A DNA stretch of 64,000 nt from an uncultured Gammaproteobacteria bacterium (GCA_964402425.1 CAYOCD010000001.1:82934-146933); one strand, 5' to 3'; numbered from the stretch's first letter, positions 16,464-56,946 are shown. The notes: generated by a model not told the origin, from the sequence alone. Translations and numbers: made by a program.

Positions 16464-16502
16464 GGTGTGAGGAAGGCGGAAGAGTACCACTTTCCTCACA
16501 CC
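16464..16502 (-). terminator. Hairpin (10-bp stem GGTGTGAGGA/TCCTCACACC) with a GGCGGAAGAG loop, followed on the minus strand by CCCATTTTTT. Intrinsic terminator after 16520..18148 and a mini-member of the GA-rich repeat family.
   Basis: Seen in sequence: gggtgtgaggaaggcggaagagtaccactttcctcacacc. Confidence 0.5.
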
Positions 16503-16519
16503 ACGTCTAGACCTACTGA

Positions 16520-18148
16520 CTAGAAATTACACGCAGGAACGTCCTTGGCGGTCAGATCGTACTCGATCGTTACACCAACAACAACATTACCAGGCGTTGC
16601 TTTTTTGATTTCAATATTCGTGAAGCTGTCGATAAGCTTCACGAATGTCGTCTCGACCCACACAAACTTCGGATCGAAATCGATCTGGACGAATACACTG
16701 ATGTGTAGGGTCTTACCCTGCTTGAGTTCGGCACACACATCCGCCATGAGAGGCGAAGACGCGACCTTCTCGAACGTCATGACGATCTTCTTGTCCGCGA
16801 TCGCATCACCAAAGTAATACGCCACGCCACACGAATATCCGTCAGACTCCTTGTAGAGATCAGGGTTTGAGCATGTCATTAGGAATTTTCGATCTTCCCA
16901 CTGACACCCCTTGGCACCTTGGCAAAAGTCCTTGGTGAAATTATTACCATCTTCGCAGAGCGCGTCGGGTTCCTTGGGAGGCATCGGGAGGCCGGTGCAG
17001 GCGTTGTCTTTGCCGTCGCAGAGCTCGGGCGCGCCTGGATAGACATCCGAATCCGTGTCATCACAGTCCGCATTCGGACCAAACGCGAGCGCCATGCCAG
17101 CCGGAGCCGAACACGCGAGCGTGGTCTTAGATGTCGGGTTTCCATACCCATCACCGTCTGCATCCATGTGATAAACCATCTGCACACCATCGTCGGTCTG
17201 CCCATTGCAGTTGTCGTCGACTTCGTTGCAGGTTTCAACCGCACCGGGATGAATCTTCTTTCCGGTAACCGGCGTGTCGTTGCAGTCCGTGCTCGTGGTA
17301 GTTGCACCAACGGGCGCGTCACATGCTTCAACCTTCTTATCAGGAGCGCCGTAGCCATCGCCATCGTCGTCCTTAAAGTAGGTCTTTTTAACTTTGTCAC
17401 CATCGTCGACTAGCTTGTTGCAATCGTTGTCGACGTTGTCGCAGACTTCCGGGTTGCCCGGGAAGCGCTTGGCATCGGCATCATCGCAATCAGTGCCTGA
17501 AACAACGACACCCTTTTCAGGCTTGCAAGCCTTGACGGGCTTACTCACTGAACCATGACCATCAAGATCCTGATCAACGAAGAAATCACCCTTCACACCT
17601 TCGTCGGTCTGCCCATTGCAGTTGTCGTCGATGTCCGGCGTGTCGCAAGTTTCCTTCATTCCAGGATTGATGATCTTCAGGTTGTCGTTGCAGTCGTCGC
17701 CGTTTGCGACGTACTTCAGAGCGAAGCCACTGCACGCACCCGACAATTCACTTGCCGGATTGCCATAGCCATCACCATCATTGTCGAAATACCACGACTT
17801 CGTGGTGTCGTCGACCTTATAGTTACAGTCGTTGTCGACCTTGTCGCACTGCTCTTTTGCGTCCGGGTGGACGCTTGGAGCGGCATCATCGCAATCGTTC
17901 ATGTTCAAGACGTGCCCCGGAGGGGGCGCGTTCTTACATGTCACGTATGGCTTCGCAGGATCGCCAAAGCCATCCTTGTCGCCATCGAGGTAAAACGTCT
18001 GCTCGACGCATGGCGTCGGAGTCAGGTTGTTCGAACCTCCCGCGACGAAATCGTCATCGGCCGGAAAGACACCTGTGCCAGAGGCACAGCCAGCGATAGC
18101 CAACGCCATCGCAAGACACTGGAAGCGCAGCTTCATCGCGGTCTCCAT
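16520..18148 (-). CDS. Cys/Asp-rich repeat lipoprotein (MopE-like repeats; lipobox AIAGC).
   Basis: MKLRFQCLAMALAIAGCASG. Repeats CDxVDNDCNxKVDD and CDNVDNDCNKLVDDG. High G+C. Confidence 0.6.
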   Translation of the reverse strand: METAMKLRFQCLAMALAIAGCASGTGVFPADDDFVAGGSNNLTPTPCVEQTFYLDGDKDGFGDPAKPYVTCKNAPPPGHVLNMNDCDDAAPSVHPDAKEQCDKVDNDCNYKVDDTTKSWYFDNDGDGYGNPASELSGACSGFALKYVANGDDCNDNLKIINPGMKETCDTPDIDDNCNGQTDEGVKGDFFVDQDLDGHGSVSKPVKACKPEKGVVVSGTDCDDADAKRFPGNPEVCDNVDNDCNKLVDDGDKVKKTYFKDDDGDGYGAPDKKVEACDAPVGATTTSTDCNDTPVTGKKIHPGAVETCNEVDDNCNGQTDDGVQMVYHMDADGDGYGNPTSKTTLACSAPAGMALAFGPNADCDDTDSDVYPGAPELCDGKDNACTGLPMPPKEPDALCEDGNNFTKDFCQGAKGCQWEDRKFLMTCSNPDLYKESDGYSCGVAYYFGDAIADKKIVMTFEKVASSPLMADVCAELKQGKTLHISVFVQIDFDPKFVWVETTFVKLIDSFTNIEIKKATPGNVVVGVTIEYDLTAKDVPACNF

Positions 18149-18282
18149 TTAAAGAGTGTACTGGCGCAGGCCCGCCCGTACGTTGTTGTGTGTAGATCAC
18201 GGCCTGATTCCATGGCTTAATTAGCACTAGAATCAGCTCACAATCGACCCGGAAAAATATCATGTTTTGAGAAAAATGTCAA

Positions 18283-18413
18283 GGGAAAAGGGCGGAAGTG
18301 GCAGAAAAGGCGGAAGAGGCGGAAAGGAACACAAAGTGGGAAGCGCAAAAAAATGCGCGGAAACAGACATTCCTTTCCGCCCTTTCCGCCTCTTCCGCCC
18401 TTTCTGCCTTTCC
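18283..18413. repeat. GA-rich palindromic element A: arms of about 45 bp (GGAAAAGGGCGGAAGTGGCAGAAAAGGCGGAAGAGGCGGAAAGG / inverted copy) around a 40-nt loop containing the mini-hairpin GCGCAAAAAAATGCGC.
   Basis: Seen in sequence, between two lipoprotein genes. Confidence 0.7.
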
Positions 18414-18478
18414 TTAAAAAATGAAAAATCCCTCAGTTTCTTGCGAAACCAAGGGACGAGTTGAGGGGTCCAGGGCTG

Positions 18479-19438
18479 CTACTTGCAGTCGTGGATTTCG
18501 AGGTTGACCGAGCAGCCGCCTTCAGGGGCAGGCCACTTCTTGACGAGCTTTGTGACGTCGAGGATCGAGCCATCGCCCTTGACCACGAAGATCACGGCGT
18601 CGGGGTTGATCTTGTCGTCCATGCAGAGCCACTCGCTTGCCGGCTTGCCGTGGGCCGTGTTGAAGCGGACACCGCAGGCGTTGCCGTCGGGAACGAGCGT
18701 GAAGACGATGTTGTTGATCGACTCCTGGAACCAGACCCAGTCCTTGCCGATGTCCGCTTGCGCGTAGTACGGCACCGCCATGATCTTCTGACCCATCTTC
18801 TCAGACGGCCAGGAGACGACGAGGGCGAAATTGTCGCCGAGGAGCAGGTCGTCGAACGACTCGCGGGGGGCACAACCTTCGTCGGTCTTGCCGTCGCAGT
18901 CGTTGTCGATGTCGTCGTCACACGTCTCGGTCGCGTCCTGGTTCAACCAGAAGCCGTCGACCTTGCCGTCACTGTTGGCATCCTTCGCCGAGTCGTTGCA
19001 GTCGCCCCCGTGAGCCGAATAGCCCTTGGGAACTTCTGCACCGATGCACACGGTGGTCACTTCCTTCGACAGGCCGTAACCGTCCTTGTCGCCATCGAAG
19101 TAAACTTCTTCGGTCAGGCCTTCATCGGCATGACCGTCGCAGTTGTTGTCGATGCCGTCGCAGATCTCCACGGCGTACTTGTTCACCGCCGGGTTGGTCT
19201 CGTCGCAATCGTTGCCGAGTGCGGGCGAGAAGCCGTCGCCATCCAAGTCACCGTAGACCTTCTTGGGGGTCTCGGTCTCGGTGGGCGTGGTCGCAGCCGG
19301 CGGGTCGACAGTGCTGGTCGTCTCGTCGGTCGCACCTTGCTCGTCGTCCGTCGCATCGAAGACACCGTTGCCACTTTCGCAGGCACCGAAGGAGATAATG
19401 GTCGCGATAGCCAGAAACAGCTTGAGAAACGTATTCAT
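18479..19438 (-). CDS. Cys/Asp-rich repeat lipoprotein (lipobox SFGAC; repeats CDGIDNNCDGHADEG, DNDCDGKTDEGC).
   Basis: MNTFLKLFLAIATIISFGACESG. Paralogous to neighbouring genes. Confidence 0.6.
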   Translation of the reverse strand: MNTFLKLFLAIATIISFGACESGNGVFDATDDEQGATDETTSTVDPPAATTPTETETPKKVYGDLDGDGFSPALGNDCDETNPAVNKYAVEICDGIDNNCDGHADEGLTEEVYFDGDKDGYGLSKEVTTVCIGAEVPKGYSAHGGDCNDSAKDANSDGKVDGFWLNQDATETCDDDIDNDCDGKTDEGCAPRESFDDLLLGDNFALVVSWPSEKMGQKIMAVPYYAQADIGKDWVWFQESINNIVFTLVPDGNACGVRFNTAHGKPASEWLCMDDKINPDAVIFVVKGDGSILDVTKLVKKWPAPEGGCSVNLEIHDCK

Positions 19439-19815
19439 CTGAACTTCCTTTCCCTTGCGGGAGTCTTATCTTGCCTGACAGAACTTTCTGCCCGACCTGA
19501 CTCGACACTCCCCGCAGGGAGATTTTTTTGTTGAAACACCGGGAATCCGGGACAGCAGAGGCTTTTGAGACCCCTACGAATGTGAGTTTGGGTACTGATA
19601 CGAGAATTTCTTTCGATTTATCATCTACATCATCTAGTTCACGCAAACACACATTTGTAAGGACCTCGTTTTCAAGCCTTATTGCTCATTTAGTAACAAG
19701 CAACTATACCATAAAATCGCACTTTTGTCAAGGGTTGCTGGATGCAATTTGGAACAAATATTGGGCTTTTTTGATTATTTGGCTATTTTTGTCAGGGATT
19801 ATGAGACAAAGTAAA

Positions 19816-19920
19816 AGCTGGAGAGGCGAGAGAGGCTGGAGATGCTTGAGAGGCTTTAGAAACGCGCTTTTCCCCTCCCCTTCGGCCTCTCTCGCCTCTC
19901 CAGCCTTTCAAGCCTTCCCC
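19816..19920. repeat. GA-rich palindromic element D (GAGAGGCGAGAGAGGCTGGAGATGCTTGAGAGGC ... GCCTCTCTCGCCTCTCCAGCC). Preceded by the TTTTGTCAGGG leader motif at about 19786.
   Basis: Seen in sequence. Shares the core GATGCTTGAGAGGCTTTAGAAACGCGCTTT with element E. Confidence 0.7.
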
Positions 19921-19997
19921 CCCCTCCTCTTTCCCAAAAAAAACGACCCCACCTCAACAAAGAGATAGGGTCAGAAAGTGGGCCGAAATTGGCCGAG

Positions 19998-20963
19998 TTA
20001 CGGGGTGGGGCACGAGGCGCCGGGCTTGGCGACCAGGAAGTACGCCGAGCAGCCGCCGTCCTTGAGGACCGTCTTCACGCTGGACGTATTATACGTCTGG
20101 CCGAACAGCGTGGCCGTAATCGTGGGTTGCGAGTTGAGAACTGCCGTCGAACTTCCCATGCAGAGCCACCCTTGTGGCTGGTCCACATTGAAGCGCAAAT
20201 ACGTGCAGTTGCTCTGAGTGAGATTGCCAAGGTCGACGCTGAGCGATGCATTCATCGTCCAGGCCTGGGGCTTCCAGTCCGTGAACGAGGTATCGGGCGT
20301 AATGCCATAGCTCAAGCGGCGGTAGGCGCTGTCCGGGTACGTCACCGTGAGGGTGTTGTTGCCCGTAGGTGCCGTGCAGCCTTCGTCGATCAGACCGTCG
20401 CAGTCGTTGTCTTTGCTGTCGGCGCAGACTTCCGCGGTTGCTACGCATGGAGCGACGCAACCTTCGTCCGCCTGGCCATCGCAATCGTTGTCCTTGTTGT
20501 CGCCGCAGACCTCATTGGTCGGGACGCACTGTGCGGCACAACCTTCGTCAACCTGCCCGTTGCAGTTGTTGTCGACGTTGTCGCCGCACTTCTCCGGAAC
20601 ACCCGGATTTACGTTGACGTTGTTGTCATTGCAGTCGCCCTGCTTGGGGGCGGTACTGCAGTAGCCATCGCCGTCACCGTCGGTGCAGTTCGTCGAGACA
20701 CACTGTGACTGGTAGTCGTTGCAGCAGTCCTTGTTGACCACACACTCGGCGTCGCATTGACATTGTGCCTTGTTGTTGTACGCCGTGCCACACTTGCCTT
20801 GGCAAGTGGGCGCCGGCGCCGTGTCGGTCGAGTCGCGGCCGGAGGCCGTCGAGTCGACCGAAACGGCCGTGTCGGACTCCTCGTTGATGTCGAACGGCTC
20901 GTGAGAGCCACAGGCCGCCACGATGGCGAGGGAAAGAATCAAACAAGCGGGGATGTAACGCAT
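19998..20963 (-). CDS. Cys/Asp-rich repeat lipoprotein (lipobox IVAAC; repeats CGDNVDNNCNGQVDEGC, CGDNKDNDCDGQADEGC, CADSKDNDCDGLIDEGC).
   Basis: MRYIPACLILSLAIVAACGS. Three near-identical 25-aa repeats in tandem. Confidence 0.6.
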   Translation of the reverse strand: MRYIPACLILSLAIVAACGSHEPFDINEESDTAVSVDSTASGRDSTDTAPAPTCQGKCGTAYNNKAQCQCDAECVVNKDCCNDYQSQCVSTNCTDGDGDGYCSTAPKQGDCNDNNVNVNPGVPEKCGDNVDNNCNGQVDEGCAAQCVPTNEVCGDNKDNDCDGQADEGCVAPCVATAEVCADSKDNDCDGLIDEGCTAPTGNNTLTVTYPDSAYRRLSYGITPDTSFTDWKPQAWTMNASLSVDLGNLTQSNCTYLRFNVDQPQGWLCMGSSTAVLNSQPTITATLFGQTYNTSSVKTVLKDGGCSAYFLVAKPGASCPTP

Positions 20964-21163
20964 GAAACACTCCAGTCGGACGCATGAAGCGCGCGACGTT
21001 CTGTTGCCCGGCCCTGATGCCGGAGCAGTTGCCTGCTTTCACCGAAACCATATCGGCTGCATCAGGACAAACATCGATACAACAATGTTCTATCGATATT
21101 TATCACGACACAATTTATGTAAAATGTACCTTAATGAACGTTGAATAGTATCACAATTCTCTG

Positions 21164-21288
21164 ATTTTGTCAAGGGGAAGGGCTGAAAAGGCGAGAGAGG
21201 CTTGAGATGCTTGAGAGGCTTTAGAAACGCGCTTTCTTCGACATCTCAAACCTCTCAAGCCTTTCTTACAGCCTTCCCCAAAAAAAAC
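21164..21288. repeat. GA-rich palindromic element E with leader TTTTGTCAAGGGG. Core shared with elements D, F and H.
   Basis: ttttgtcaaggggaagggctgaaaaggcgagagaggcttgagatgcttgagaggctttagaaacgcgcttt...acatctcaaacctctcaagcctttc. Confidence 0.7.
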
Positions 21289-21362
21289 AGCTCTCTCAAT
21301 CCATTCCCGAAGGAAATTCATGAGAGAGCCGAGAGGGCCACCAACGTCGCGAGAGTCTGCGA

Positions 21363-22901
21363 CTACTTGGGGCCGAAGCCAAAGTTGATGCCGGCCGAGA
21401 AGGCGGCGAACGGGCTGGTATCGCTACCCTTGCCCGCGCCGTAACTCTCGACACCCACGGTCGCACGAGCTTGGAAGCCAACCTTGAAGTTAGTGCCGGA
21501 AGTCGTGGAGACGTAGGAGAGGCCAGCACCGCCGCCGCGCGAATAAGAGTTCGCGCCAACGACCGAGCCTCCCGCATCGTGCTGAAGGAACATGGCGTGG
21601 ACACCGAAGCCGTAGAGCGCCTTGAAGGTCACTTCCGCACCACCTTGGTAGGCGATGCTCGATTCCCAACCCTTCGGACCGTCATCCGCAAGCGGAAGCA
21701 GGTTGAAGAAGCCGTTGAACCGACCAGTCTCGTTGGCGTAGCCCAGGTTCAGACCGACGTAGCCACCCGGTGACGTGTTGCCACGCATCTGGTAGACCTT
21801 GCCGTTCTTGGTGACGTGAGCGTCGTGACCGAGGAGCGCTGCACCACCGAGCGAAAGCTCAACGAGGACACCCTGCTTCTCCAGTTCCGTGACGGTCGCG
21901 ATGACCTGGTCGGCCTTTGCTTCAGCTTCGGTCGAACGATCGATCGCGGCTTGCGCCTTGGTGTCGATCGCCGCTTCCGCCGCCTTCGCACGAGCTTCCT
22001 CGTTCGCGATGGCCGTCTTCTGCTCCGCGAGGGCCGTGTCAAAAGCACTAAGCTGCTCGGTGTGACCCTGCAGCGCCGCGTCGAAGGTGTTGACCTTGGC
22101 CGAAGCCGCGTCCGCAACCTTCTTCGCATCGTCCGCCGTGGCCTGAGCCTTGGCGATCGGAGCGCTGTAGTCGACGCCGCGCACTGCCTTGGCCGAAGCC
22201 TTGGGAGCGGGAGCAGCGGGATCTGCCGGCGTCACCGAGCCCGGGAGGGGCGCGGCGGCGGACGGAGTGCGACGAACAGCCTTGGCCTTAGGAGCGCCGG
22301 GGCAGGTCGGACACGCGGTGGGACGAACCTTCTTGCACTTGTCCTGATCCTGCAGCGTCGGGCTGTACGAGTCAGGAACGAAGTTCAACACTCCGTCACA
22401 ATCCACATCCACCGAACGGTAACCAGTTGCCGGAGTCAGCTTGCCACCCGTGAAGTCCACGGTGCAGTTGCCAGCCTTGCACGCCAGGATGTCCTTGAGG
22501 AGCCGAAGCTCCGAGGACGACTTGGGCGTGATCGAACGGCCGAGGCCACGCGCGAAACGCGCAACCACATCCGGACCACCGACGACGTTCAGCGACGCAG
22601 TGTCGCCGCTCGCCGTCTCCCAAGCACTCACCTTGCAGTCATTGTTCAGGCCATCGTCCCACAACTTGGGGTCGGCGGCCTCGTTGATGCCGGGGTTGAT
22701 ATCGGCATGCTGATCGTCGCAGTCACCACACTTAATGGCGCCGGGGGGCAGAACATTGCAGACAGCGTCGCACACTGCGTACTTGTCGCCATCATCATTC
22801 TTGCACTCCACCGGAGCCGCGAAAGCGGACGAGGAAACGATCGTGGCCGCGAGGGCCAACAACAACAGGGAAAACTTCTTCATCGGGAACTCCTTGGGCA
22901 T
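21363..22901 (-). CDS. Secreted protein: Cys-rich N-terminal module, Ala/Lys-rich coiled-coil, C-terminal Gly/aromatic-rich beta-strand domain of about 170 aa (possible beta-barrel-like anchor).
   Basis: Signal peptide MKKFSLLLLALAATIVSSSAFA. Middle region KAQATADDAKKVADAASAKV...EARAKAAEAAIDTKAQAAI. C-terminus has alternating hydrophobic patterns and ends FGFGPK. Confidence 0.5.
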   Translation of the reverse strand: MPKEFPMKKFSLLLLALAATIVSSSAFAAPVECKNDDGDKYAVCDAVCNVLPPGAIKCGDCDDQHADINPGINEAADPKLWDDGLNNDCKVSAWETASGDTASLNVVGGPDVVARFARGLGRSITPKSSSELRLLKDILACKAGNCTVDFTGGKLTPATGYRSVDVDCDGVLNFVPDSYSPTLQDQDKCKKVRPTACPTCPGAPKAKAVRRTPSAAAPLPGSVTPADPAAPAPKASAKAVRGVDYSAPIAKAQATADDAKKVADAASAKVNTFDAALQGHTEQLSAFDTALAEQKTAIANEEARAKAAEAAIDTKAQAAIDRSTEAEAKADQVIATVTELEKQGVLVELSLGGAALLGHDAHVTKNGKVYQMRGNTSPGGYVGLNLGYANETGRFNGFFNLLPLADDGPKGWESSIAYQGGAEVTFKALYGFGVHAMFLQHDAGGSVVGANSYSRGGGAGLSYVSTTSGTNFKVGFQARATVGVESYGAGKGSDTSPFAAFSAGINFGFGPK

Positions 22902-23262
22902 CGCCCAGGTGATGGGAACACTACTGTCCCCTCGGGGTGTAGAGTTTGGGAAACCTATCCCTTACTCCACTCACGTCACCCCGAGGGGTTGACGCGTAGC
23001 CTTGGAATCCATTCTTTTGAAGAACTTCATCCGCGACCAGTGCAAATAAACCAATGATTTACTTGAATTGATCGCGGACTCAAGTGGTTCGGCTTCTTTT
23101 ACAACAAGGAGGAATGTGTGAAAGAGGTCAAACCGCTTGAAAACACGAGTTTTACTAAATTGCTTGGAAATGAACTGTTCACTGCCTCATTACTGAACGG
23201 AGAACTATATCATAATTTTGCAATTTTGTCAAGAGATCCATGACATCATCCACAGGTGTGGG

Positions 23263-23440: not shown

Positions 23441-23930
23441 GGAAGGCGAGAGAGGTTTGAGAGACTGGAGATGCTTGAGAGGCCGAAGAGAAGGCCAAAA
23501 AAACAGTCAATTGTCTGGATAGACGATTGACTGTTTGTATTTTCTAAGAAGAAAGTCTGCTCTGGCTCTAATATCTTCCAAAAATTCGTAGGATATCTCA
23601 TCAAGAAAACCTAATGAATATGAGATCTCGAGAAAAAAAGCACATTCTTTCGAAGAACCCTCTGCAATATTTAAATATCGAATAAAGTCTTTTTGTGATT
23701 GTGTAGCTCGTCCTTCAACAATATTCGCAGGAATAGAGAGTGCTGCCCGACGCAACTGTGACGTAATTCCAAATATCTCCTGTTTAGGAAATGACTCTGT
23801 TTTTTTATAAACCTCAATGACAAACTTATTGGCTTCCTGCCAAGCTAATATTTTATGATACGGCTGTTGTTTCATATTTTCTTCGGCCTCTCAAACATCT
23901 CCAACCTCTCTCGCCTCTCCAGCCTTCCCC
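23441..23930. mobile_element. Putative full-length member of the GA-rich palindromic element family. Its inverted arms (23441-23506 and 23881-23930) flank a four-helix-bundle protein gene as cargo. No transposase.
   Basis: The reverse complement of the right arm, ggggaaggctggagaggcgagagaggttggagatgtttgagaggccgaag, nearly equals the left arm gggaaggcgagagaggtttgagagactggagatgcttgagaggccgaag. Confidence 0.35.
23507..23875 (-). CDS. Four-helix-bundle protein of the 23S rRNA intervening-sequence protein family (TIGR02436/PF05635-like).
   Basis: LAWQEANKFVIEVYKKTESFPKQEIFGITSQLRRAALSIPANIVEG...IRYLNIAEGSSKECAFFLEISYSLGFLD matches the characteristic pattern of this family. Recognised from memory, no search run. 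Confidence 0.6.
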   Translation of the reverse strand: MKQQPYHKILAWQEANKFVIEVYKKTESFPKQEIFGITSQLRRAALSIPANIVEGRATQSQKDFIRYLNIAEGSSKECAFFLEISYSLGFLDEISYEFLEDIRARADFLLRKYKQSIVYPDN

Positions 23931-24571: not shown

Positions 24572-24588
24572 ACACTAGATAGTATATC

Positions 24589-30958: not shown

Positions 30959-30961
30959 CCT

Positions 30962-48100: not shown

Positions 48101-51100
48101 GGTATTCCAGTAAATCCCTGTGATTTAAACCAAGCCATTGGTGACAGATAATTTGGATTTGAGAGAACACGCACTCCAATAGAGTCTTTTGTTCCAGAAA
48201 CGCGGAACACTAATTCTTTCAAGACATCTGTTGTAATGAGTTGATTTACATCTGGTGTTGCATCTGTTGGAGGAAGTTCAAGAGCAGGCAGCTTCTTTCC
48301 TTCTTCTGGTTTTCCAACATCTCGACAATAGAATAAGGAGAAGTTTGTGTTCGCTCCATTTTCAACAAATGGAACCCCGTGTGCCAAATCCGGCCATGGA
48401 TTTTCACACAAGAACGCAACCTCTGACACATGACCAGATACAGCCGAACCAACCGTTGATTTTGCACTTATTGTATCTGCAGAGATTGTTGCGGTTGCAA
48501 TAACATTTCCTGAACCGTTCTTTCCAAGGGCTTTATATTGCGCTGTTTGTGCGATGCTTGGTCCAACAATTCCTAAAATATCCATTTTAGTTGCCGTATC
48601 TTTCACGTTTGCAGCCCAGACCCACGTCCAAGCGTATACACCTGAAATTGAAGAGATTTCTTCAAGTGTTCCTGTGTTTTTGCGATAAGAAAACGGCTTT
48701 GTTGTAAATGCGTGGACTTCATTTGTCTTAGAATAATATCCGGGGCTCTTTGAGAGATACGAAGGTGGAGTTGGGGTGATTCCACCATCTGTTGTTTCCA
48801 CAACGTCAAGCAAACAAACATCCGCACCGGTTGTGAAAGTACTTGAGAGAGAAACAACGGAGCAAGTTGTGCCATTGTCACCAAGACAAACACTGACCTT
48901 GTTTTTACTAAGAACTCCCTTTGACGTTTCTCCGTTTTTTGTTTTTACCGTCAATTTATATTGCGCATTTGGAAGTAATTGTTCTGTGTAACGAAGATAA
49001 ACTTGATGTGTACCTGGGTCTTGTTCAAACGAAACAGGAACAAAACATTGCGTGGTTGCATTTGCCATGGCAGATTGCCCAAAAGCATCTTTAACCCAAT
49101 TCCAAACAAAAGAGAAAATATTTTTTGCACGCATGAATCCAACAGGCTTTGGATAATACGGACAGTTAACTGCTGTTACAGCCTCATTGATACCTAAACT
49201 ATTTTTCTTCGTAATCAGCTCAAGCTGAAGATTTGGATCTGTTTCTGCCGCACTTAATTTTCCATCTCCGTCAGTATCTACGGAACCAAACGTACTCGCA
49301 TCCATTTCTTGATCAAACGCAATGGAAATAGCCGTATTGCGACAAATGTTTGTTGCATTATTTCCAGGAACCATCGCTGTAATCGTTGGGCGCTCAAAAC
49401 AACACTTTTCCACACCGCAACCAAGCGATTTTGAAGATTCCCCTGTTTTTGTTCCACACTGATTATCGGAAGCACAGGAACAAAGCAATTTCACTTCGCC
49501 TGTACCTGTCTTTCCTCCAACGGAGACCTGTACATTTGAAACAGCATATCCGTATGTTGCTTTTTTCTCATCTTTTTCTACCTCAAGCGACGCTCCACTT
49601 GAAACTTCTGCAACACCATAAGCACCAACGGTATATGTTGCGGAAGCAGCTGCTTCACACTGCTCGCCCGGTTCAAGAGCTCCCCCATTTCCACAAACAG
49701 AAGGGATAGCATAATTTGGATTTGAACCCATCTTTAAACAACTCTTTGAACATCCAGGAGCGATAGATCCAACACCAAGATCACATCCTGCATCTTCCCC
49801 GGAATCTGTAACACCGTTTCCACAGACAAATTTTGCTGGATCTTTTCCAGGACTTGTTCCGCGATTCAAACAAAGATCTGTACAAGCCACTGTGGTACGA
49901 ACCTCACATTTTGAACCATCCTGACACGCTGCACCACCAATGGTACAGACAGCCCCATCCGCACAATGCGTTCCTGGATCACATGTCTCTCCAACACTAG
50001 CAATTCCATCTCCACAACGTGCATTTGAATACGCAACAACACCTCCTTCAAACAAACAATTTGAGGAACATCCATCTCCTTCTTTTATGTTTCCGTCATC
50101 ACAGGCTTCCCCACCATTTGTCTTTGAGTTATCAGCAACTCCGTCTCCACAAATAGATTTAATAGAGGAAACCCCTTCAAACAAACACTTTGCAGAACAT
50201 CCATCTCCACCCAAAACTTTTCCATCATCACATTGTTCACCCGCATCCACAACGTTATTTCCACACGTTGGAGCAACCGTTCCTTCTTTCAAACAACTTG
50301 ATGAACAGCCGTCTTTGTCATTTGTGTTTCCATCATCACAAGACTCCCCGTAATTTACTGCCCCATTTCCACAAACAGCTTGTCCGACTTTGATTGGGTT
50401 TCCTGTATACAAACAGTTTCCTCCACACATTTTTGGGAGTGTGTTTGTAAGAGCAAGCGAACCATTATTCAACAAAAACGCAGTGATCTCATTGTATTTA
50501 TGATCTGCTCCTATTACATACGATGCTGCACCGATCTTGTTTGGTGTATCTGTTGCACCCCATCCACCCCATCCACTTGCTTGCAAGGCTTGCCCTGTTA
50601 CAGAACATTCGTCCGGAGCTCCATATGCAATCGCGTTGTATTCTTGACGTTGACCAACATATTTAAGTATTGCCGACTTTGGAGAAAGCCCAACACGATC
50701 AACGGCACATGAGGTGAGCGAATCTTTTGACTTAAATTTCCAAGAAAACGCACCTGGATAAAATTTATTTTCAGGAGTTCCGTAATTAGATCCAGATTCT
50801 GAAAGAGATGAGGACACACTCGATTTAATCCAATCTGCGACAACAACTCGATACCACGTATTTGACACAAACGCAGCGCCATCTGTCACAATTGATGCTC
50901 GATATGTTGCAGAATCATATATGACACTCGTAACATGATTCCATGCGGTCAACTGACTCTTTTCACAAAGGGCATTTTCACATTGAAAAATACGAATTGC
51001 ACCCGCAATATTAAAGACAGCTGGATTCATTGGAACATTAAATGAAACCCACGGCTTCACGTTTGCACATGCGGCAGAACAGTTTGGAAAATAATCACTT

Positions 51101-54100
51101 ACTTTTGGTGTTGCAAGCGCGATGGTCAGAAGTCCTTTATTCGTTGGTTTATTTCCAACATCCGTAACCGTTGCACTAATTTCTGCAGGGATTCCAATAG
51201 GGGTGTTATAAAGAGGATTGACATTTACGGTACAAACACCGGCTGCAGGATTACTTGTTAATGTGTCACCCGGTAGGAATTTTGCTGCCTGTTGTGAAGA
51301 ACTCCAACTTACCGAATGTCCAGCACACGCAAGCACAACACACTTGTCTTTGTTTGAAAGTAATTGTGCAAGATATCCAACAGCATCTCCGGCATTTTTT
51401 GCCGTGAACGTTGCTGGAGAAACACTCACTCCACCAACACCACATGGCGCATTTGAGGAGGATGTTCTGAATTCCCAAGAATAATCTTTTGCCATGGAAG
51501 CACCCGAAACAAGTCCATTCACCTTAGATTTTACCCCACCCCCAGGAGCAGATGCCCCTTTGATGGTAACGCGATGCAAAGTACTTGTATCAAAATGATT
51601 ATTTGGAGACCATTGAAATGTATATTCACCTGGTGTCTGAAAAGAACCTGGCACCACTTGCCAATCTGCTGCTACACATGTTCCATTTACCTCTTTGGCT
51701 ATTGGACATTTTTCTATAACGATATTTGTGTTTCCGATACCGATCGTTGCAGGATCCATTGGAACCGCAAACGAAGCTGTCACTGCAGCTGAAACACAGA
51801 TATCATTTTGCGTACTCCAAAGTGGTGATGGGGATGGTGATGGCTTTGGAAATTTTGGATCCGCACAATTCACAACAACCGTTGGCGCAACAGGAATTGG
51901 GCTCGTTGAAACCTTGTAAACAAATTGAGAAAATTTCGGCCCATCGCTTGGACAGGCTTGGCCTACAAGTGAACACGAGCCATCTCCACAGCATGCCTGA
52001 CCAGCCGTACAGAGACTTGGAGTTTGCAGACAATTTCCAACCGCAAAATTTACCGAGTTTGATTGTTTCAGCGCAGCATCTACCACATAAACAGGACCTG
52101 ACTTTGTTCCAACAGGAACGCTCGCTGATCCGATTTCAGTTCCTGTCCAGGAACCAGGATCTTCGGAAAGATTTGTTGTAAACACAACCGCTCCTTTTTG
52201 ATCTCCAAAATTTTCTCCAAAAATATCAATCGATGTTCCGGCAGGACCCGCGTTTTTGCTTAAAAGACAAATTCCTGGTGTTGGTTTTCCATCCACAACG
52301 GTAAATGGTTTTGCATCAGAAGCATTTCCGGTCTGAGGCACAACACTCACTTCATAATTACCAGGTTTGATAGGACTCTTATCTAGATTAAATGGAACTT
52401 TTACCGTAACCGAATTAGTGTGCCAAAAAAGATCTCCACAAGCTTTTGGGAACTCTACATTTCCGTTTATAACCTCATTTGAAGTAAGATTTTTAAATTT
52501 AACGTATCCTGTAGATGACCCAAAATTGGATCCATAAATGGTTACATATTGTCCAGAAGGACCCCATGCTGACTGCGATTTACAAGAACCAGCTACGCCA
52601 CCACAATCCTTATCCGTAGAACAATATTGATTTGCTATCGCTCCTCCATTACAGACTTTCCAACCTGTATCAATTGTAGCGATCGTTGCTTTTTCTACAT
52701 TTGGTGTGTTTGTTGCAACAAATTTCTTTGTATTAGAACCAACGCGAACATCCATACATGTTCCACCCGCAGCTCCACAAGCCGTATTATCCTGACAATA
52801 TTGAAGCGTCTCAGAACACCAGGACATTCCACACTTATATGCTGCATCTACTTTTGTACAATCCGCATTTGAAAAACAAGAAAGCGCTGGACTCACTTTT
52901 GCCCCACTCGCATTCAAACAGAAATAATCACCTGTAAAAACTTGGGCATTATACGTTCCGCTTGCAACTCCTGGTACATTTCCTTTCAATTCCGTCGCTC
53001 CCCACAAAGAAGGCGTCAACTGAAAATTTGAAAGATAAACAGAAGACGAACCTTGTCCAGCACCAAACGCAAGACCAGTCAGAGTAATTAACGTATTCAC
53101 TTCCGCAGCTGGTGTAATCGAACACAAACCAGGGCGCTTAATTGCGTTTACATCAAATTTAGATATGACGGGTCCAACAGCATCATCAGTTCTTTCTGAC
53201 TGTGCTGCTGCCCCCAGAGCACCTGCTGGAATATTGATTTTTAACGGACCATCAATAGCACCAGCCGGTACTTTCACAACAATTTCCTTTTCTTTCCAAG
53301 AAGAAGTTCCGCCACACTGGAATGCGTTTGCCACTTTTGTCGTTCCATCTTTTTCTGCTCCAAGAAATTCAACCGTACCGGGCGTTGTCCCAAATCCAGA
53401 ACCTGTAATCGTGATTAAGTTTTCTACAGCACCATTGTCTGGAGAGATAGATTGAATAACAGGGACATCCTGACATCTTCCTGCAATACAAAACCCAGAA
53501 GAACATTGTGCATTACTCGTACACGCAGACGGCTTACAGAGCCCGCAAAAATATTCGCTTGTTGCGTCTCCACCACAATCACACGCATCACCAACTGCAC
53601 ATGTTCCCGTTTCTCCATACGGAGCACTTGCATCTTGCGTGCCATTGTCACAGTTTGGCGCACGAAGCATGACAGAAACTTTTCTGGAAATTTGTGTAGA
53701 TCCCGCACAATCAGTAGCCATTGCCCAAACGGCATATGACTTATTTGCAACAAATCCAACCGGAGTCCATTCTCCATTAAAAAATGCTGTTGTGAGTCCA
53801 TTTAATGCCGTAGGATTCACCGCAATAGAAGATGTATCAACAGAAGTTTCTCCGTCTGCAGCAAAAAATTCAACACTGGCCACTCCTGTATCATCAACCG
53901 TTCTTACTTGAAGTGGTTTGCTTAATCCCAAAATAGCTTTTGCTCCAGCTTGTGGTTCTACAAACGAAACTTCTTGAGGTGGTTTTGTGTCCACAACAGA
54001 GCCTGTTGTGAAATCAAACGAACAAGGATTCACTCCCCCCTCCGTCTTACAAGTAAGCGTTGCACCGCTTGCTGATTTAACTTGTGCAGGATCTACCTCA

Positions 54101-54816
54101 ACATGAAATGCGGCGTTTGGTGCAAAACAAGACAAAGATTCATTTGGAGTCGGACATTTTTCTTCTGGCGTGAACATGACTTTTCTGCCAGAAAACGTAA
54201 AAGACCCGGGAACATCCACCCCGTCTCTTGTGATCTTTATTCCCTTTTCATCTTTCACGGATTTTGAAAAAACAAGGGATAATTTAAGGTTACGAACACC
54301 CGCAGCACATTGGATAATGGACGTTGGCGGATTTAATGAGAATACAGGAGTTGGTGACGGAAACGGTGAAGTTTTTAAACAAGATAGATCTGTAGGATTT
54401 TTTTTACAAAACGCAATAATATCTGCATTCGATGTTGCTCCCACCAACTTTGAAATGACGAATTGTGCAATCGCAAACGATGACAAAACAATCACAAGAC
54501 CGATTAAACCGTTTTTAATGGAGTTCTTTGCTTTTTTGAGACGATCTTCGTTTCCACCCGCCGTCATGTACATGAATCCTCCGTACAGAACAATCATGAC
54601 CGCAATAATTCCAAGAAACGAAATGACTGTGCGAATCAAACGCGCAATAATGACGGTAATGGAAGGCCCTGTTGAAAACCCCGCGTTGGCCGCAAAAGAA
54701 GCAAACGCATCTGGATCTACAGGACTTGCAGCGAGGATTGGTTGAGCAAAAAAGATTCCCGTGCAAAGGAGAACGGTTAGAATAAACATCGATTGAAGCA
54801 ATCTGCGGAGGTTCAT
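45163..54816 (-). CDS. Giant (3217 aa) cysteine-rich cell-surface protein. N-terminal signal peptide plus two-helix membrane hairpin domain, SbsA-type Ig-like / beta-rich regions, and at least 10 Myxococcus-type cysteine-rich repeats (CGNGxxxxGExCDDGNxxxGDGCSxxC).
   Basis: Single uninterrupted ORF. N-terminus MNLRRLLQSMFILTVLLCTGIFFAQPILAAS...IIARLIRTVISFLGIIAVMIVLYGGFMYMTAGGNEDRLKKAKNSIKNGLIGLVIVLSSFAIAQFVI. Repeats such as CGNGAVNYGESCDDGNTNDKDGCSSSCLKEG, CGNNVVDAGEQCDDGKVLGGDGCSAKCLFEG and CGDGAINGGEYCDG. Confidence 0.7.
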   Translation of the reverse strand: MNLRRLLQSMFILTVLLCTGIFFAQPILAASPVDPDAFASFAANAGFSTGPSITVIIARLIRTVISFLGIIAVMIVLYGGFMYMTAGGNEDRLKKAKNSIKNGLIGLVIVLSSFAIAQFVISKLVGATSNADIIAFCKKNPTDLSCLKTSPFPSPTPVFSLNPPTSIIQCAAGVRNLKLSLVFSKSVKDEKGIKITRDGVDVPGSFTFSGRKVMFTPEEKCPTPNESLSCFAPNAAFHVEVDPAQVKSASGATLTCKTEGGVNPCSFDFTTGSVVDTKPPQEVSFVEPQAGAKAILGLSKPLQVRTVDDTGVASVEFFAADGETSVDTSSIAVNPTALNGLTTAFFNGEWTPVGFVANKSYAVWAMATDCAGSTQISRKVSVMLRAPNCDNGTQDASAPYGETGTCAVGDACDCGGDATSEYFCGLCKPSACTSNAQCSSGFCIAGRCQDVPVIQSISPDNGAVENLITITGSGFGTTPGTVEFLGAEKDGTTKVANAFQCGGTSSWKEKEIVVKVPAGAIDGPLKINIPAGALGAAAQSERTDDAVGPVISKFDVNAIKRPGLCSITPAAEVNTLITLTGLAFGAGQGSSSVYLSNFQLTPSLWGATELKGNVPGVASGTYNAQVFTGDYFCLNASGAKVSPALSCFSNADCTKVDAAYKCGMSWCSETLQYCQDNTACGAAGGTCMDVRVGSNTKKFVATNTPNVEKATIATIDTGWKVCNGGAIANQYCSTDKDCGGVAGSCKSQSAWGPSGQYVTIYGSNFGSSTGYVKFKNLTSNEVINGNVEFPKACGDLFWHTNSVTVKVPFNLDKSPIKPGNYEVSVVPQTGNASDAKPFTVVDGKPTPGICLLSKNAGPAGTSIDIFGENFGDQKGAVVFTTNLSEDPGSWTGTEIGSASVPVGTKSGPVYVVDAALKQSNSVNFAVGNCLQTPSLCTAGQACCGDGSCSLVGQACPSDGPKFSQFVYKVSTSPIPVAPTVVVNCADPKFPKPSPSPSPLWSTQNDICVSAAVTASFAVPMDPATIGIGNTNIVIEKCPIAKEVNGTCVAADWQVVPGSFQTPGEYTFQWSPNNHFDTSTLHRVTIKGASAPGGGVKSKVNGLVSGASMAKDYSWEFRTSSSNAPCGVGGVSVSPATFTAKNAGDAVGYLAQLLSNKDKCVVLACAGHSVSWSSSQQAAKFLPGDTLTSNPAAGVCTVNVNPLYNTPIGIPAEISATVTDVGNKPTNKGLLTIALATPKVSDYFPNCSAACANVKPWVSFNVPMNPAVFNIAGAIRIFQCENALCEKSQLTAWNHVTSVIYDSATYRASIVTDGAAFVSNTWYRVVVADWIKSSVSSSLSESGSNYGTPENKFYPGAFSWKFKSKDSLTSCAVDRVGLSPKSAILKYVGQRQEYNAIAYGAPDECSVTGQALQASGWGGWGATDTPNKIGAASYVIGADHKYNEITAFLLNNGSLALTNTLPKMCGGNCLYTGNPIKVGQAVCGNGAVNYGESCDDGNTNDKDGCSSSCLKEGTVAPTCGNNVVDAGEQCDDGKVLGGDGCSAKCLFEGVSSIKSICGDGVADNSKTNGGEACDDGNIKEGDGCSSNCLFEGGVVAYSNARCGDGIASVGETCDPGTHCADGAVCTIGGAACQDGSKCEVRTTVACTDLCLNRGTSPGKDPAKFVCGNGVTDSGEDAGCDLGVGSIAPGCSKSCLKMGSNPNYAIPSVCGNGGALEPGEQCEAAASATYTVGAYGVAEVSSGASLEVEKDEKKATYGYAVSNVQVSVGGKTGTGEVKLLCSCASDNQCGTKTGESSKSLGCGVEKCCFERPTITAMVPGNNATNICRNTAISIAFDQEMDASTFGSVDTDGDGKLSAAETDPNLQLELITKKNSLGINEAVTAVNCPYYPKPVGFMRAKNIFSFVWNWVKDAFGQSAMANATTQCFVPVSFEQDPGTHQVYLRYTEQLLPNAQYKLTVKTKNGETSKGVLSKNKVSVCLGDNGTTCSVVSLSSTFTTGADVCLLDVVETTDGGITPTPPSYLSKSPGYYSKTNEVHAFTTKPFSYRKNTGTLEEISSISGVYAWTWVWAANVKDTATKMDILGIVGPSIAQTAQYKALGKNGSGNVIATATISADTISAKSTVGSAVSGHVSEVAFLCENPWPDLAHGVPFVENGANTNFSLFYCRDVGKPEEGKKLPALELPPTDATPDVNQLITTDVLKELVFRVSGTKDSIGVRVLSNPNYLSPMAWFKSQGFTGIPKAAKLDGYEAVQTGTTIYAAAANRNGSNLYSNIYVISFNADAGKDAQQIFDLVLQNFRLNANDTGVTGVSHVGLCKSGSAYVPPSGPFTTCSWDGDCLDQCKPDGKCSVSDKVCNPKLGNAECAVADPNMFCDADKQKLIRDTKRLTDVTEMVTTFEKYGNTNGRCAVTKSQACVVSQNSKAGTGANSACPGTETCIPSYPTIQAGTFVPSVSNSIWPSWNSTLGNEVGGALPTDPLNQFWGQCKNVGEGYDSATCWNSAQGKSLCPNGSHVYGYQNFGGEAYVLTTELEYSTVAWNNKIDASGDQATIKAAYLNGKAPANLLPGFVSTSAYCNATVFGSSTICGDGVKGVGEDCEIGEVKSIACANNAGFINVTCKNDCKNYATDAAAEDAAKKAGGTCKPFSCGDGVIDKALGEVCDDGTALNGTYGHCGKDCKVVSNFACGDGYLAGNEQCDCGTPSNWSTLAGTSWAKSGNHCATYNGNYDKDGKNCTAECKAPGPMCGDNLINDSSEKCDGNTETYAGALNNDGTKCTASSGCPVAACAKAKICTAGTTIGAICTDDASCGAGGKCSAEQYDLTRTRTCQNYNNPSSNSCQWITNLAGGGWGACAGGPQQCGNGKKEGTEECDDGNSSSNDSCTNACKTNVCGDNFVNVGIESCDSGKANGIACNAAYGSSCNFCNQYCQYKTQSGPYCGDGAINGGEYCDGTKLNGTCTKSISADEMDLKGPCDSKDVGLTSDGTANGKKDDGSTSTWHGTSCDKGYSCRIVGTCNGGSLRGENGKKCAAYQNNCDGYCETSGSTCNWNGDCNTANNEKCIGVGTCVLPTCSSSCNSSCPTAFQKVALQVQGNVAESQPSSSITLFSLENTEGKTPDRASLLLPACRVGVGITANVSSSSSLLNAGNTVSLIAATFKDANGKYTLPQTGTSLLEIGNGLKLPLPSKFICQDAPFSLPINVKLNPTSASVTLSNIEFTYCPVN

Positions 54817-54826
54817 GTAAAAAAGA

Positions 54827-56737
54827 TTACGGTGCGATCACAGGATAGGGACACGCGGGACTTGAAACTGAGCTCGATGGTTCTCCGTTACAGCAATAAG
54901 GCTTCGTTTCATCTGTTCCGTTACAATTTTTTGCTGAACTTGCGGCTGTTGCCGCTGACGGGAACATACAAATCTGATACACACTTTTGACATCTTGTGT
55001 GACAGATGGCCAATAAGATGACCCACCTTCTGCATTTGAAATAAACGCTGGATGAGAAATATGTACGACGGATTTAGTTGGGATATCTGTTTTAAGCGCA
55101 TTCGGAAGATCTGTTTTTGATACCGAGTACCACATGGGATATTTTGGATCCGGCAACAAAGAGATGTTTGTTGCATTGACTGTTGAGGCTTTGAGCAACG
55201 TATTAAACGAAAGTGTAACATCTGCCGATACATCAATGTTTCCTTCAAGGATATCTGGTGCAAGCGCTTCAATTTTTGGAACCGTGTCATTAATGATGTT
55301 TGTTGTCTTAAAACTCCATGCGTAATCATCATTTGCTTGCGTTCCGGAACACGCAACACTATCTTTTGAACTTCCGCATGCTTTACCATCATTATTTCCG
55401 TCTAACGAATTTCCTGCGGCATCCACAACTCCATCATAACTTACCCCAGTCAAAACACCTTGTGGGACGTTTGTAGGATCAATACTTGCTGCTTTAGCCG
55501 TAACGGTTATTTGTTTTCCTCCTGGCAAACAATAAATCTTTCCACCACACGGATCTTTTCCACAATCATCTGTTGTTGTGAAACTCACTGTTTTATATCC
55601 GTTACTGATATCATAAGTACCGTTTATTGGGTTTGCTCCACCATCACTTGATGCGATACGCTGAAATGCCTTTAGCTCTCCCCCTCCCGCAAGATATGTT
55701 CCTGATACAGCGATCGGATCCATTGGTTCATTAAATGTCAGTTCTATGGAAATGTTTCGTGCAAATTCTGAAAGTGATTGACCTTCTTGTAAAGGCTTCA
55801 CGGATGGAATGACAGAAATAATCGTTGGTGGTGTTAAATCAACATTGGTTGAAACGGTGAAATTCCATCCATATCCTGCCGAATTCACACCGGTAAATGC
55901 AGCACCACCCGCTTGTTTTTCAATACTTGGTTTAAGAGCAACGGTAAAAGATGCATTTGTTTGAGGATTTCCAAGATATGTAACTGGCTTGAACACAAAT
56001 GTCTTGAAATCCTCACTCACAGTTACCACAACTTTATCACTCGCAAGTTTTGTTGTTTCACCTTTTGCTGTCTCAAAAATGGAGACGGCGTTTGTTTTTA
56101 ACTTTGTGCTACACAAAGGAACGGTTTGATTAGCTGCAACTGTATACGTACAAGGTGATTTGTAGCCATCAATAATGGTCTCAGGTTTAATTGGCTCTTT
56201 GAAGGTAACAAAGATTTTTGTGTTACGTGGAACATCTGAAGCGTTTCTGACAGGAAAATGACTTTCAAGAATACCCGCCCCAAGTGAACCCGCAAGCGGC
56301 TCTGTATATTTTTTTGCAACAGACACAATCGAGCCTGGGCCATAAGCAGCATTAAGCAATTTTCCAAGAATCCATGAAGCGATGGAATAGGAAGAAAGAA
56401 TAATGACAAGACCGATGACTGCGTTTGAAATGATCTTTTTTGCTTTTGCAACTTTTGCCAAATCTCCGGAAGCGGTCATGTACATGAACCCGGCAGAAAT
56501 AACCAAAAGAACCATCACAATTCCAAGAACCCCAAGAACTGCCCGAATGATGCGCGCAATGAAAATAGGCAAGCTTGTTTGTGGGAGTCCTGCTCCCTCA
56601 CCCAAAGACTGAAGAGCATCCGCTGCAAATACCCCGTGCGGAATCAAAAAAGATCCGATGACAACAAAGAACAGCACACCAAAAAAAGCTACTCTGTAAG
56701 CCGGAAGTTTATTTGTAAGACGGAAAAATCGCTTCAT
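54827..56737 (-). CDS. 636-aa surface protein with the same N-terminal two-helix hairpin domain as the giant protein, followed by Ig-like (SbsA_Ig-type) domains and a Cys-containing C-terminus.
   Basis: N-terminus ...FIARIIRAVLGVLGIVMVLLVISAGFMYMTASGDLAKVAKAKKIISNAVIGLVIILSSYSIASWIL. Ig-like signature TPPTIISVIP...ISIELTFNEPMDPIAV. 10-nt gap to the giant gene. Confidence 0.65.
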   Translation of the reverse strand: MKRFFRLTNKLPAYRVAFFGVLFFVVIGSFLIPHGVFAADALQSLGEGAGLPQTSLPIFIARIIRAVLGVLGIVMVLLVISAGFMYMTASGDLAKVAKAKKIISNAVIGLVIILSSYSIASWILGKLLNAAYGPGSIVSVAKKYTEPLAGSLGAGILESHFPVRNASDVPRNTKIFVTFKEPIKPETIIDGYKSPCTYTVAANQTVPLCSTKLKTNAVSIFETAKGETTKLASDKVVVTVSEDFKTFVFKPVTYLGNPQTNASFTVALKPSIEKQAGGAAFTGVNSAGYGWNFTVSTNVDLTPPTIISVIPSVKPLQEGQSLSEFARNISIELTFNEPMDPIAVSGTYLAGGGELKAFQRIASSDGGANPINGTYDISNGYKTVSFTTTDDCGKDPCGGKIYCLPGGKQITVTAKAASIDPTNVPQGVLTGVSYDGVVDAAGNSLDGNNDGKACGSSKDSVACSGTQANDDYAWSFKTTNIINDTVPKIEALAPDILEGNIDVSADVTLSFNTLLKASTVNATNISLLPDPKYPMWYSVSKTDLPNALKTDIPTKSVVHISHPAFISNAEGGSSYWPSVTQDVKSVYQICMFPSAATAASSAKNCNGTDETKPYCCNGEPSSSVSSPACPYPVIAP

Positions 56738-56809
56738 GTAATATCAAAAATACGACACAAACATTGTATCGTATTTTTCTTCAATCGAATAGAAAAAGAT
56801 GGGGATAAA

Positions 56810-56946
56810 GAGTAAGGCTATAAAGGCAATAGAGGCTTGAGATGCCGAAGGGAACAAAAAAAAGAACGCGGTCAACGCGTTCTTTATTTTCTTGTTTCTT
56901 TTTTTCGGCATCTCAAGCCTCTCCAGCATCTCTCGCCTCTCTAGCT
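56810..56946. repeat. GA-rich palindromic element H: 16-bp perfect inverted repeat GAGGCTTGAGATGCCG/CGGCATCTCAAGCCTC plus CTCTCGCCTCTC arm. Loop carries the hairpin GAACGCGGTCAACGCGTTC. Abuts the stop of the yqeY-fusion gene.
   Basis: Seen in sequence between 56737 and 56941. Confidence 0.7.

Follow-up and report, generated by a model that had tools for sequence, protein, structure and literature searches.

The 64,000-nucleotide stretch of DNA analysed here (the window; GCA_964402425.1 CAYOCD010000001.1:82934-146933) carries a family of palindromic elements built from one block, an arm of about 50 nt, two of which, inverted, bracket a short loop that often holds an intrinsic terminator. In one copy, element E, the arms bracket a gene of family PF05635, whose product is the intervening-sequence protein (IVP, or S23p). 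Our favoured explanation, to which we assign a probability of about 55%, is that these are inserted, selfish elements of the intervening-sequence (IVS) type, forming a lineage-specific family within the structural class of IVP cassettes. That class includes the S23p-encoding 23S rRNA intervening sequence, in which an inverted stem of tandem repeats surrounds an open reading frame (ORF). By its sequence, the source lineage is assigned to Candidatus Uhrbacteria, in the Candidate Phyla Radiation (CPR, Patescibacteria).

An earlier note, made from the sequence alone, had described within 16464-56946 a recurring palindromic family of at least nine copies in two related sub-types, most of them inverted-repeat pairs. 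Profile and pattern searches of the 64-kb window placed eight of the nine listed loci in one family. An nhmmer model of 27 arms, taken from the window and from the genome of a sister species introduced below, detected 14 arms at eight loci and no further matches; 13 arms scored at E<0.01, and the right arm of element G was marginal (E 1.8). The generic three-unit pattern GCNNNARAGGCNNNARAKGCNNNARAK, with up to two mismatches, gave 29 matches against 0.07 expected, all within the listed loci, and the type-2 core pattern gave six against 0.00 expected. The reported GA-rich and CT-rich arms were likewise recovered by an all-against-all repeat search of the window. The arms align into a single family, with eight member loci rather than nine: 16464-16502 was rejected, being a plain hairpin with about one unit that the arm profile missed. 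Arms occur as inverted pairs at six loci (B, C, D, E, G and I) and as complete single arms at F and H. Elements occur about once per 8 kb and make up roughly 2% of the window. The loci are as follows.

16464-16502, minus strand: non-member hairpin with a T-run behind it, the probable terminator of the gene 16520..18148.
18283-18413, unstranded: element B, inverted pair of GGCGGAARA-type 9-mers with a GA-rich arm at 18288-18330 and a CT-rich arm at 18369-18416 (z -8.5).
19813-19930, unstranded: element C, inverted pair with arms at 19813-19856 and 19877-19920.
21174-21282, unstranded: element D, inverted pair with arms at 21175-21221 and 21237-21279 (z -6.6).
23441-23930, minus strand: element E, ORF-bearing, directly after the wzz stop codon (z -10.2).
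30909-30958, plus strand: element F, single CT-rich arm 2-3 nt upstream of the infC ATG.
38139-38292, unstranded: element G, inverted pair filling the entire spacer from the ftsZ stop to the nrdR ATG (z -6.5).
40480-40527, minus strand: element H, single GA-rich arm directly after the ftsA stop TAG, with a separate terminator hairpin behind it.
56810-56950, unstranded: element I, inverted pair with arms at 56812-56856 and 56905-56947 (z -8.5/-9.9).

Every arm has a period of 9 nt and is a tandem array (Tandem Repeats Finder), a feature that the earlier note had missed, as it had the PF05635 gene within copy E. The repeat unit is the degenerate 9-mer GCNNNARAG, present three to six times per arm. 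Alignment of the arms gave a plan of about 50 nt in which an outer GGGGAAGG is followed by ordered 9-mers, typically GCTGGAGAG GCGAGAGAG GCTGGAGAT GCTTGAGAG, and then by an inner GCCGAAG, both ends being conserved. The two sub-types are indeed related and are distinguished solely by the variable triplet of the 9-mer. In the window and in the sister genome, GA-oriented arms are very often preceded at their outer ends by TAG, TAA or CATAG and thus abut or supply a stop codon; read the other way, they finish in ...CCCCT immediately ahead of the following gene's ATG. This placement may reflect a TA-type target or selection alone. Arrays of guide RNAs belonging to a CRISPR-like or TIGR-Tas-like (tandem interspaced guide RNA) system were considered as a reading of the repeats, since TIGR arrays are known in CPR bacteria and show weak sequence conservation (PMC12045711). 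A 9-nt period with only three variable bases is too short for spacers, however, the copies are short, dispersed and palindromic, and there is no Tas or Cas gene in the window and no PADLOC match. On this anatomy and the lack of Tas/Cas genes in the window the reading was rejected, and we give it next to no chance of being right.

Paired copies fold into stems of 30-50 bp far more stably than shuffled sequences (z = -6.3 to -10.2), apart from a weaker fold of element C on the minus strand (z = -3.3). The purine-rich arms have no internal self-complementarity, and a stem needs two arms. Against Rfam, the window matched only a tmRNA and a tRNA at gathering thresholds; at E<=1 the only additions were sub-threshold eukaryotic microRNA-precursor models, reflecting generic long hairpins.

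Element E links the family to IVP genes. On the minus strand it reads as a GA arm (23931-23882), the IVP ORF, a terminator hairpin and a CT arm (23486-23440), and its stem of about 50 bp encloses the following features.

23507-23875, minus strand: IVP gene, 122 aa, four-helix bundle, in the loop of E.
23501-23536, minus strand: intrinsic terminator (hairpin and T-run) overlapping the end of the IVP ORF, within the loop of E.

The ORF matches PF05635 (23S_rRNA_IVP, E 5e-31) and TIGR02436, and its product is homologous to XCC0516 (PDB 2GSC, E 7e-21); PADLOC gave no match for it. The gene has a dN/dS of 0.02 at a dS of about 2.8, with synonymous sites saturated, and is under purifying selection. 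All ORF-bearing copies (E and those in loci L030, L032, L038, L039 and L122) encode an IVP, and none encodes a transposase.

The association between IVP genes and flanking arrays is general. We retrieved 80 metagenome IVP loci by protein pattern only, giving 70 distinct IVP ORFs, with 154 other ORFs of the same loci as controls. The median score for complementarity between upstream and downstream flanks was 12.25 for IVP ORFs vs 7.0 for controls (p 2e-15), and 49 of the 70 lay above the control 95th percentile. Periodicity of 5-12 nt was also higher at IVP ORFs, both in the upstream (p 1e-16) and in the downstream flank (p 2e-11); the direct-repeat score did not differ between IVP and control ORFs. 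These 70 genes, from many phyla, are flanked by tandem repeats of 6-10 nt in inverted arrays. Most neighbouring genes point the same way as the IVP gene (48/59 downstream, 45/56 upstream), and the median gaps to them, 47 and 51 nt, correspond to about one array. No rRNA motif was found near any of the 80 loci, none of which is thus placed in an rRNA gene.

Six further IVP genes on CPR or CPR-like contigs lie at operon junctions between inverted 9-mer arrays with a lineage-specific unit, among them GGTCGGAAA, GGCTGGAAA, ACCAAAGYG, GGCTATAAA and GGGCTKCAR. Their sites are given here.

The xseA-xseB junction.
The ybaB-recR junction.
Two sites adjoining release-factor (PCRF/RF-1) genes, one in front and one behind.
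In front of dnaX.
After the RNase J gene.

In L039 and L127, the lineage-specific unit is common to the IVP flanks of the genome and to its ORF-less arrays. Beyond the CPR, IVP genes of Nostoc punctiforme and Aulosira plasmids are flanked by AGTCAGG heptamers. On a Picosynechococcus sp. PCC 7003 plasmid (L130, NZ_CP016476.1 126543-126899), cas10/cmr2 and cmr3 of a type III-B operon are separated by an IVP gene whose flanks are inverted short repeats. Because finished cyanobacterial plasmids show the same arrangement, an assembly artefact is ruled out. Others have already noted IVP genes in cas loci (PMC3936711), and the Picosynechococcus example suggests that the published cases are cassette insertions.

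Scattered published observations fit this arrangement. RNase III cuts the 28-bp inverted-repeat stem of the Coxiella 23S IVS, and tandem GACAGAT heptamers in variable number lie directly upstream of its S23p ATG (PMC4990558). Xanthomonas carries 186 dispersed GGGAATC arrays, with about 70 convergent pairs in X. campestris (Rehm et al. 2015, PMC4692102), and one such array directly precedes, and overlaps the annotated start of, XCC0516, the protein of 2GSC (PMC4692102 supplement). Insertions in CPR 16S and 23S rRNA genes hold 22 IVP ORFs (PMC11270868). Apart from the Coxiella heptamers, we found no link between PF05635 and flanking tandem arrays in the literature searched.

To follow the family beyond the window, a genome collection (one genome per species) was scanned with the type-2 core. 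It returned 15 loci in 'Candidatus Uhrbacteria bacterium RIFOXYB2_FULL_45_11' and seven single matches in unrelated phyla vs about nine estimated beforehand by hand. The seven, being near chance expectation, were rejected as a family; five of them still show one short array match. The RIFOXYB2_FULL_45_11 metagenome-assembled genome (MAG) represents a sister species, syntenic with window 23-42 kb at 78-91% nucleotide identity. The loci fetched from it contain at least 30 further arms, in pairs and as about 10 singles. Three of its single arms lie in frame within ligA, uvrA and a pif1-like gene: in LigA the arm forms part of the linker between the HhH and BRCT domains, in UvrA it is a 15-residue insertion relative to solved structures (PDB 9gxk), and in the Pif1-like helicase it lies in a linker. 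The 9-nt unit corresponds to three codons, so in-frame inserts are tolerated. None of the window copies is an in-frame arm inside a gene.

Orthologous sites indicate that the arms are inserted and turned over. Three syntenic relatives found through the Wzz-like neighbour (L125, L126 and L127; Wzz 91%, 84% and 71% identical) contain no family members in 51 kb. Site E occupies 490 nt of the window (23441-23930) vs 2 nt in L125, which makes E a precise insertion at the wzz stop. The junction falls exactly at that stop, where TAA has become TAG with the G supplied by the arm, and the conserved wzz terminator comes downstream of the insertion. At site F, between the divergent smpB and infC genes, the infC ATG is separated from its -10 by about 66 nt of inserted sequence that L125 lacks. 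The arm of H is missing at the same site of the sister MAG (L027). At site G, the window has two type-1 arms and the sister MAG two type-2 arms around a homologous loop. At sites B, C and D, L125 has unrelated palindromes, some of them G-rich heptamer-like arrays; the terminator on one side of them and the promoter and 5' leader on the other are well conserved.

The arms of the two closest species show how copies spread. Some are 97% identical at non-orthologous loci, and the F arm differs at 2-3 of 55 positions. With 97% arm identity at a distance that saturates the synonymous sites of the IVP gene, the arms behave as copied or homogenised modules and not as slowly drifting spacer. Independent birth of each array by replication slippage, as in Borgs or microsatellites and with no copying between loci, could account for the variation in unit number between copies, from 3 to 10 (10 in L031), and for a partial unit duplication in L030. 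It is very improbable given that unrelated loci have the same unit order and the same outer and inner ends, that arms are nearly identical at non-orthologous loci of two species and that E is one discrete insertion. Same-species metagenome contigs (L001-L009) are at least 99.98% identical to the window, and no insertion polymorphism could be read from them.

Two of the syntenic relatives gave observations of their own. At the empty F site of L125 (2990-3075, corresponding to window 30850-30975), the infC ATG follows a -10-like hexamer at a distance of about 10 nt, a spacing that suggests, from the sequence, that the infC mRNA is leaderless; the CT-rich arm inserted in the window gives it a leader of about 66 nt that lacks a Shine-Dalgarno sequence. 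L127 (GCA_016188475.1), another Uhrbacteria genome, has an ORF-less heptamer palindrome of GTCRGAA units at 10983-11082 and a distinct family, resembling repetitive extragenic palindromic (REP) sequences, of TTATTNCCTGAGCYTGTCGAAGG inverted pairs at no fewer than seven sites in 20 kb, with examples at these positions.

251-415, L127: REP-like pair.
3755-3821, L127: REP-like pair.
7019-7089, L127: REP-like pair.
8795-8879, L127: REP-like pair.
14701-14765, L127: REP-like pair.
17861-17934, L127: REP-like pair.

We then weighed the function proposed in the earlier note, namely that the copies are 3'-untranslated-region elements of the REP or bacterial interspersed mosaic element (BIME) type, whose hairpins end transcription or shield the upstream mRNA from 3' exonucleases. 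Several observations agree with it. The hairpins are very stable, and arms adjoin the stops of ftsZ, ftsA, wzz and yqeY, four of the five genes for which stop-codon adjacency had been claimed; the claim fails for the fifth, 16520..18148, which is followed by the non-member hairpin. In I, the yqeY stop TAG (56943-56941) even falls inside the first 9-mer. A hairpin with a T-run is also present in the loop, between the arms, of E, G, I and several sister-MAG copies; that of I is bidirectional (GAACGCG..CGCGTTC), and the loop of G combines a terminator hairpin and T-run with an extended -10 (TGTTATCAT), both kept in the sister genome. Against this, canonical terminators precede B, C and D and leave them in untranscribed spacer beside a -35: B lies between a terminator (18457-18428) and a promoter (18282-18254), C lies downstream of a terminator (19973-19944) and about 80 nt upstream of a promoter (19731-19703), and D, with a terminator at about 21296-21340, abuts at its outer end the -35 of a promoter (21173-21145). 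Single arms (F, H and those in the sister MAG) are unable to form a stem, F is placed upstream of a start codon within a region of divergent promoters, and some arms lie within coding regions. Where orthologous sites lack or replace an element, the true terminators and promoters are conserved. The proposal is thus only partly supported, because separate terminators exist and because B, C and D sit between terminator and promoter; that the arms themselves are terminators or stabilisers of upstream genes is not supported, and we consider this account of the family distinctly unlikely.

The leader that the earlier note had taken as a shared part of some copies falls outside the elements. This sequence, TTTTGTCAAGGG/CACAATTCT, is the reverse complement of a TTGACA-17-TATAGT promoter with a TG, present in four paralogous copies that serve minus-strand genes for MopE-type Cys-rich proteins.

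18254-18282, minus strand: sigma-70-type promoter, the former leader, with 10-11 of 12 matches and a TG extended -10.
19703-19731, 21145-21173 and 23204-23232: its paralogous copies.

The left arm and part of the loop of D are 94% identical to their counterparts in C. The outer ends of B and D touch the -35 of strong promoters, a placement that would suit iteron-like binding sites of benefit to the host, recognised by a sequence-specific DNA- or RNA-binding protein (possibly the pentameric IVP) and organising or regulating the neighbours, for example as an insulator or an upstream activating array for the MopE-type genes. The sister species has some palindromic array in the same terminator/promoter spacers, arms are far better conserved than synonymous sites between the two closest species, and IVP flanks share their unit with ORF-less arrays in L039/L127, all of which would agree with a bound site. 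The contexts are heterogeneous, however (within operons, inside coding regions, on either side of unrelated genes), E, F and H are simply missing from close relatives, and the IVP is the only regulator-candidate gene associated. We regard a host-beneficial role of this kind as unlikely, though not far-fetched.

Under the favoured explanation of selfish IVS-type insertions, the elements would persist by landing at gene boundaries or between a terminator and the next promoter. Once a pair was fully transcribed, its stem of 30-50 bp would probably be cut by RNase III in the manner of rRNA IVS stems, uncoupling the insert from its neighbours so that the flanking genes stay functional. The terminator in the loop, with the loop promoter in G, would keep the flanking genes correctly expressed, and the three-codon length of the unit may let single arms survive within coding regions. 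The IVP, or a co-evolving factor, may recognise the repeat unit, which would explain the species-specific homogeneity of the arrays.

Several points count against this explanation. RNase III cleavage is argued by analogy only, and the terminator in the loop of E, G and I would normally halt transcription before the second arm. Partner arms are no more alike than arms of different elements (p 0.10), on which ground co-evolution of the two arms of an element was rejected, and folding energies show no meaningful preference for the transcribed strand; together these give no direct indication that the stem is under selection at the RNA level. Site E shows no evident target-site duplication, and at F there is at most an ambiguous 'AG'. 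As to a mobilising enzyme, no transposase, REP-associated tyrosine transposase (RAYT) or reverse transcriptase was found among the roughly 40 window ORFs scanned, and we know of no nuclease or recombinase activity of the IVP, a four-helix bundle of 120 aa. ORF-less cognate arrays are rare near IVP genes of other lineages (four in 113 kb vs none for shuffled units), and proliferation is therefore lineage-specific. The presence of some palindrome at the B, C and D sites of the sister species also leaves room for a host role.

Among the closest known systems, rRNA IVSs share several features with these elements: terminal inverted repeats, a long stem around a PF05635 ORF read from the purine-rich arm, variable numbers of short tandem repeats directly upstream of the ATG, and the existence of short ORF-less forms. 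The IVSs of Coxiella, Leptospira, Brucella and CPR bacteria are regarded as selfish or possibly once mobile (PMC4990558, PMC11270868). Unlike them, the window copies lie between protein-coding genes, with no rRNA gene in the window, and the family is multi-copy, mostly ORF-less and built on a 9-mer. The Xanthomonas GGGAATC arrays (PMC4692102) are similarly dispersed tandem arrays of 7-9-nt units, mostly intergenic and partly genic, single or in convergent inverted pairs, and conserved in position but variable in length between close species; the present arrays differ in having a period of 9 rather than 7 and in being GA-rich rather than prone to form G-quadruplexes (G4).

The heptamers of cyanobacterial short tandemly repeated repetitive (STRR) sequences are dispersed short tandem-repeat arrays too. 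The family fits the description of such arrays, with tandem 6-9-nt units dispersed in many copies, singly or as convergent pairs, and adds to it arms with defined conserved ends and ordered units, the 9-nt length of the unit and the link to an IVP, which the papers searched had not drawn. Like REP and BIME sequences and the REP doublets (REPINs) associated with RAYTs, the elements are found extragenically in many copies at gene 3' ends, with inverted doublets common and singlets present (six doublets and two singlets in 64 kb), and like REPIN-RAYT systems they have a species-specific sequence and a single-copy associated gene flanked by cognate repeats. The arm is a tandem array, however, and not a self-complementary palindrome of 20-40 nt, and the flanked gene encodes a PF05635 four-helix bundle instead of a Y1 (IS200/IS605-like) transposase. 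No RAYT (Y1 transposase, PF01797) was seen among the ORFs scanned.

Rickettsia palindromic elements are selfish repeats of a reduced genome that insert in frame at sites tolerated by the protein. The arms in coding genes of the sister MAG resemble them by analogy, with no sequence relationship, and differ in that only single arms occur inside genes. Correia elements of Neisseria are abundant MITEs (miniature transposable elements with inverted repeats) of about 100-150 bp with inverted ends; they are co-transcribed with their neighbours, their hairpins are RNase III substrates, and they can carry promoter or terminator signals. In contrast to these and other MITEs, the present elements have no detected target-site duplication, no parent insertion sequence with a transposase and inverted ends that are tandem arrays. 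They thus behave like REPINs, MITEs and IVSs yet lack defining features of each.

A wider proposal, which we hold tentatively and would not bet on at even odds, is that PF05635 proteins (relatives of Avd outside diversity-generating retroelements) mark a widespread and hitherto unrecognised cassette class of array, IVP gene and inverted array. Such cassettes would insert co-directionally at the stop/start junctions of operons and occasionally in rRNA genes, where they are IVSs, and each pentameric IVP would recognise its own 6-10-nt unit and maintain or spread ORF-less arrays. If so, rRNA IVSs, the Xanthomonas GGGAATC arrays, the cyanobacterial heptamers and the CPR 9-mer palindromes would all be instances of a single phenomenon that parallels RAYT-REPIN while using a different chemistry.

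The remaining observations concern the surroundings of the elements. The block at 13987-22901 has 52-59% G+C vs about 42% elsewhere and comprises five tandem minus-strand genes for secreted Cys/Asp-rich proteins, four with MopE-type putative metal-binding motifs and one also with a Somatomedin-B domain; the block is syntenic in three other Uhrbacteria genomes and is thus not a recent import. The minus-strand 5' leaders of two MopE-type genes (18150-18250 and 20965-21060) are about 90% identical to L125, beside spacer that cannot be aligned. They gave no Rfam match and are, from this conservation, candidate cis-regulatory leader RNAs. Between ftsA and ftsZ, an antisense ORF of 158 aa (39931-40407, plus strand) is without a Pfam or PADLOC match, and the sister MAG has only a 99-nt spacer there. 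The tmRNA gene (28698-29088, minus strand; tag peptide AKNVMAMIKDAFRAPAFAPVFA) adjoins smpB (30394-30894). A giant ORF of 3217 aa (45163-54816, minus strand) has internal repeats of about 108-129 nt (e.g. 50045-50354) and is neighboured by genes for TSP3-repeat proteins. Two independent metagenome contigs end at hairpins of the window, L004 inside element D (window 21206) and L001 at the non-member 16464 hairpin (window 16456), which is consistent with repeat-induced assembly breaks.

The results document a dense dispersed repeat family in a CPR/Patescibacteria genome, for which we found no precedent in the literature searched; the earlier note's description of REP/MITE-like palindromes dispersed at gene boundaries in a small-genome, uncultivated lineage is in this respect upheld. 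In practical terms, the repeats break metagenome assemblies, and the 9-nt unit creates in-frame low-complexity inserts in essential proteins. To our knowledge, PF05635 has had a solved structure since 2006 and no known function; its tie to short tandem-repeat arrays provides a lead. The findings may also account for IVP genes within cas operons (PMC3936711) and in the gaps of tightly coupled pairs such as xseA/xseB and ybaB/recR. They further suggest that, within a far broader cassette type, rRNA intervening sequences form the minority that resides in rRNA genes.

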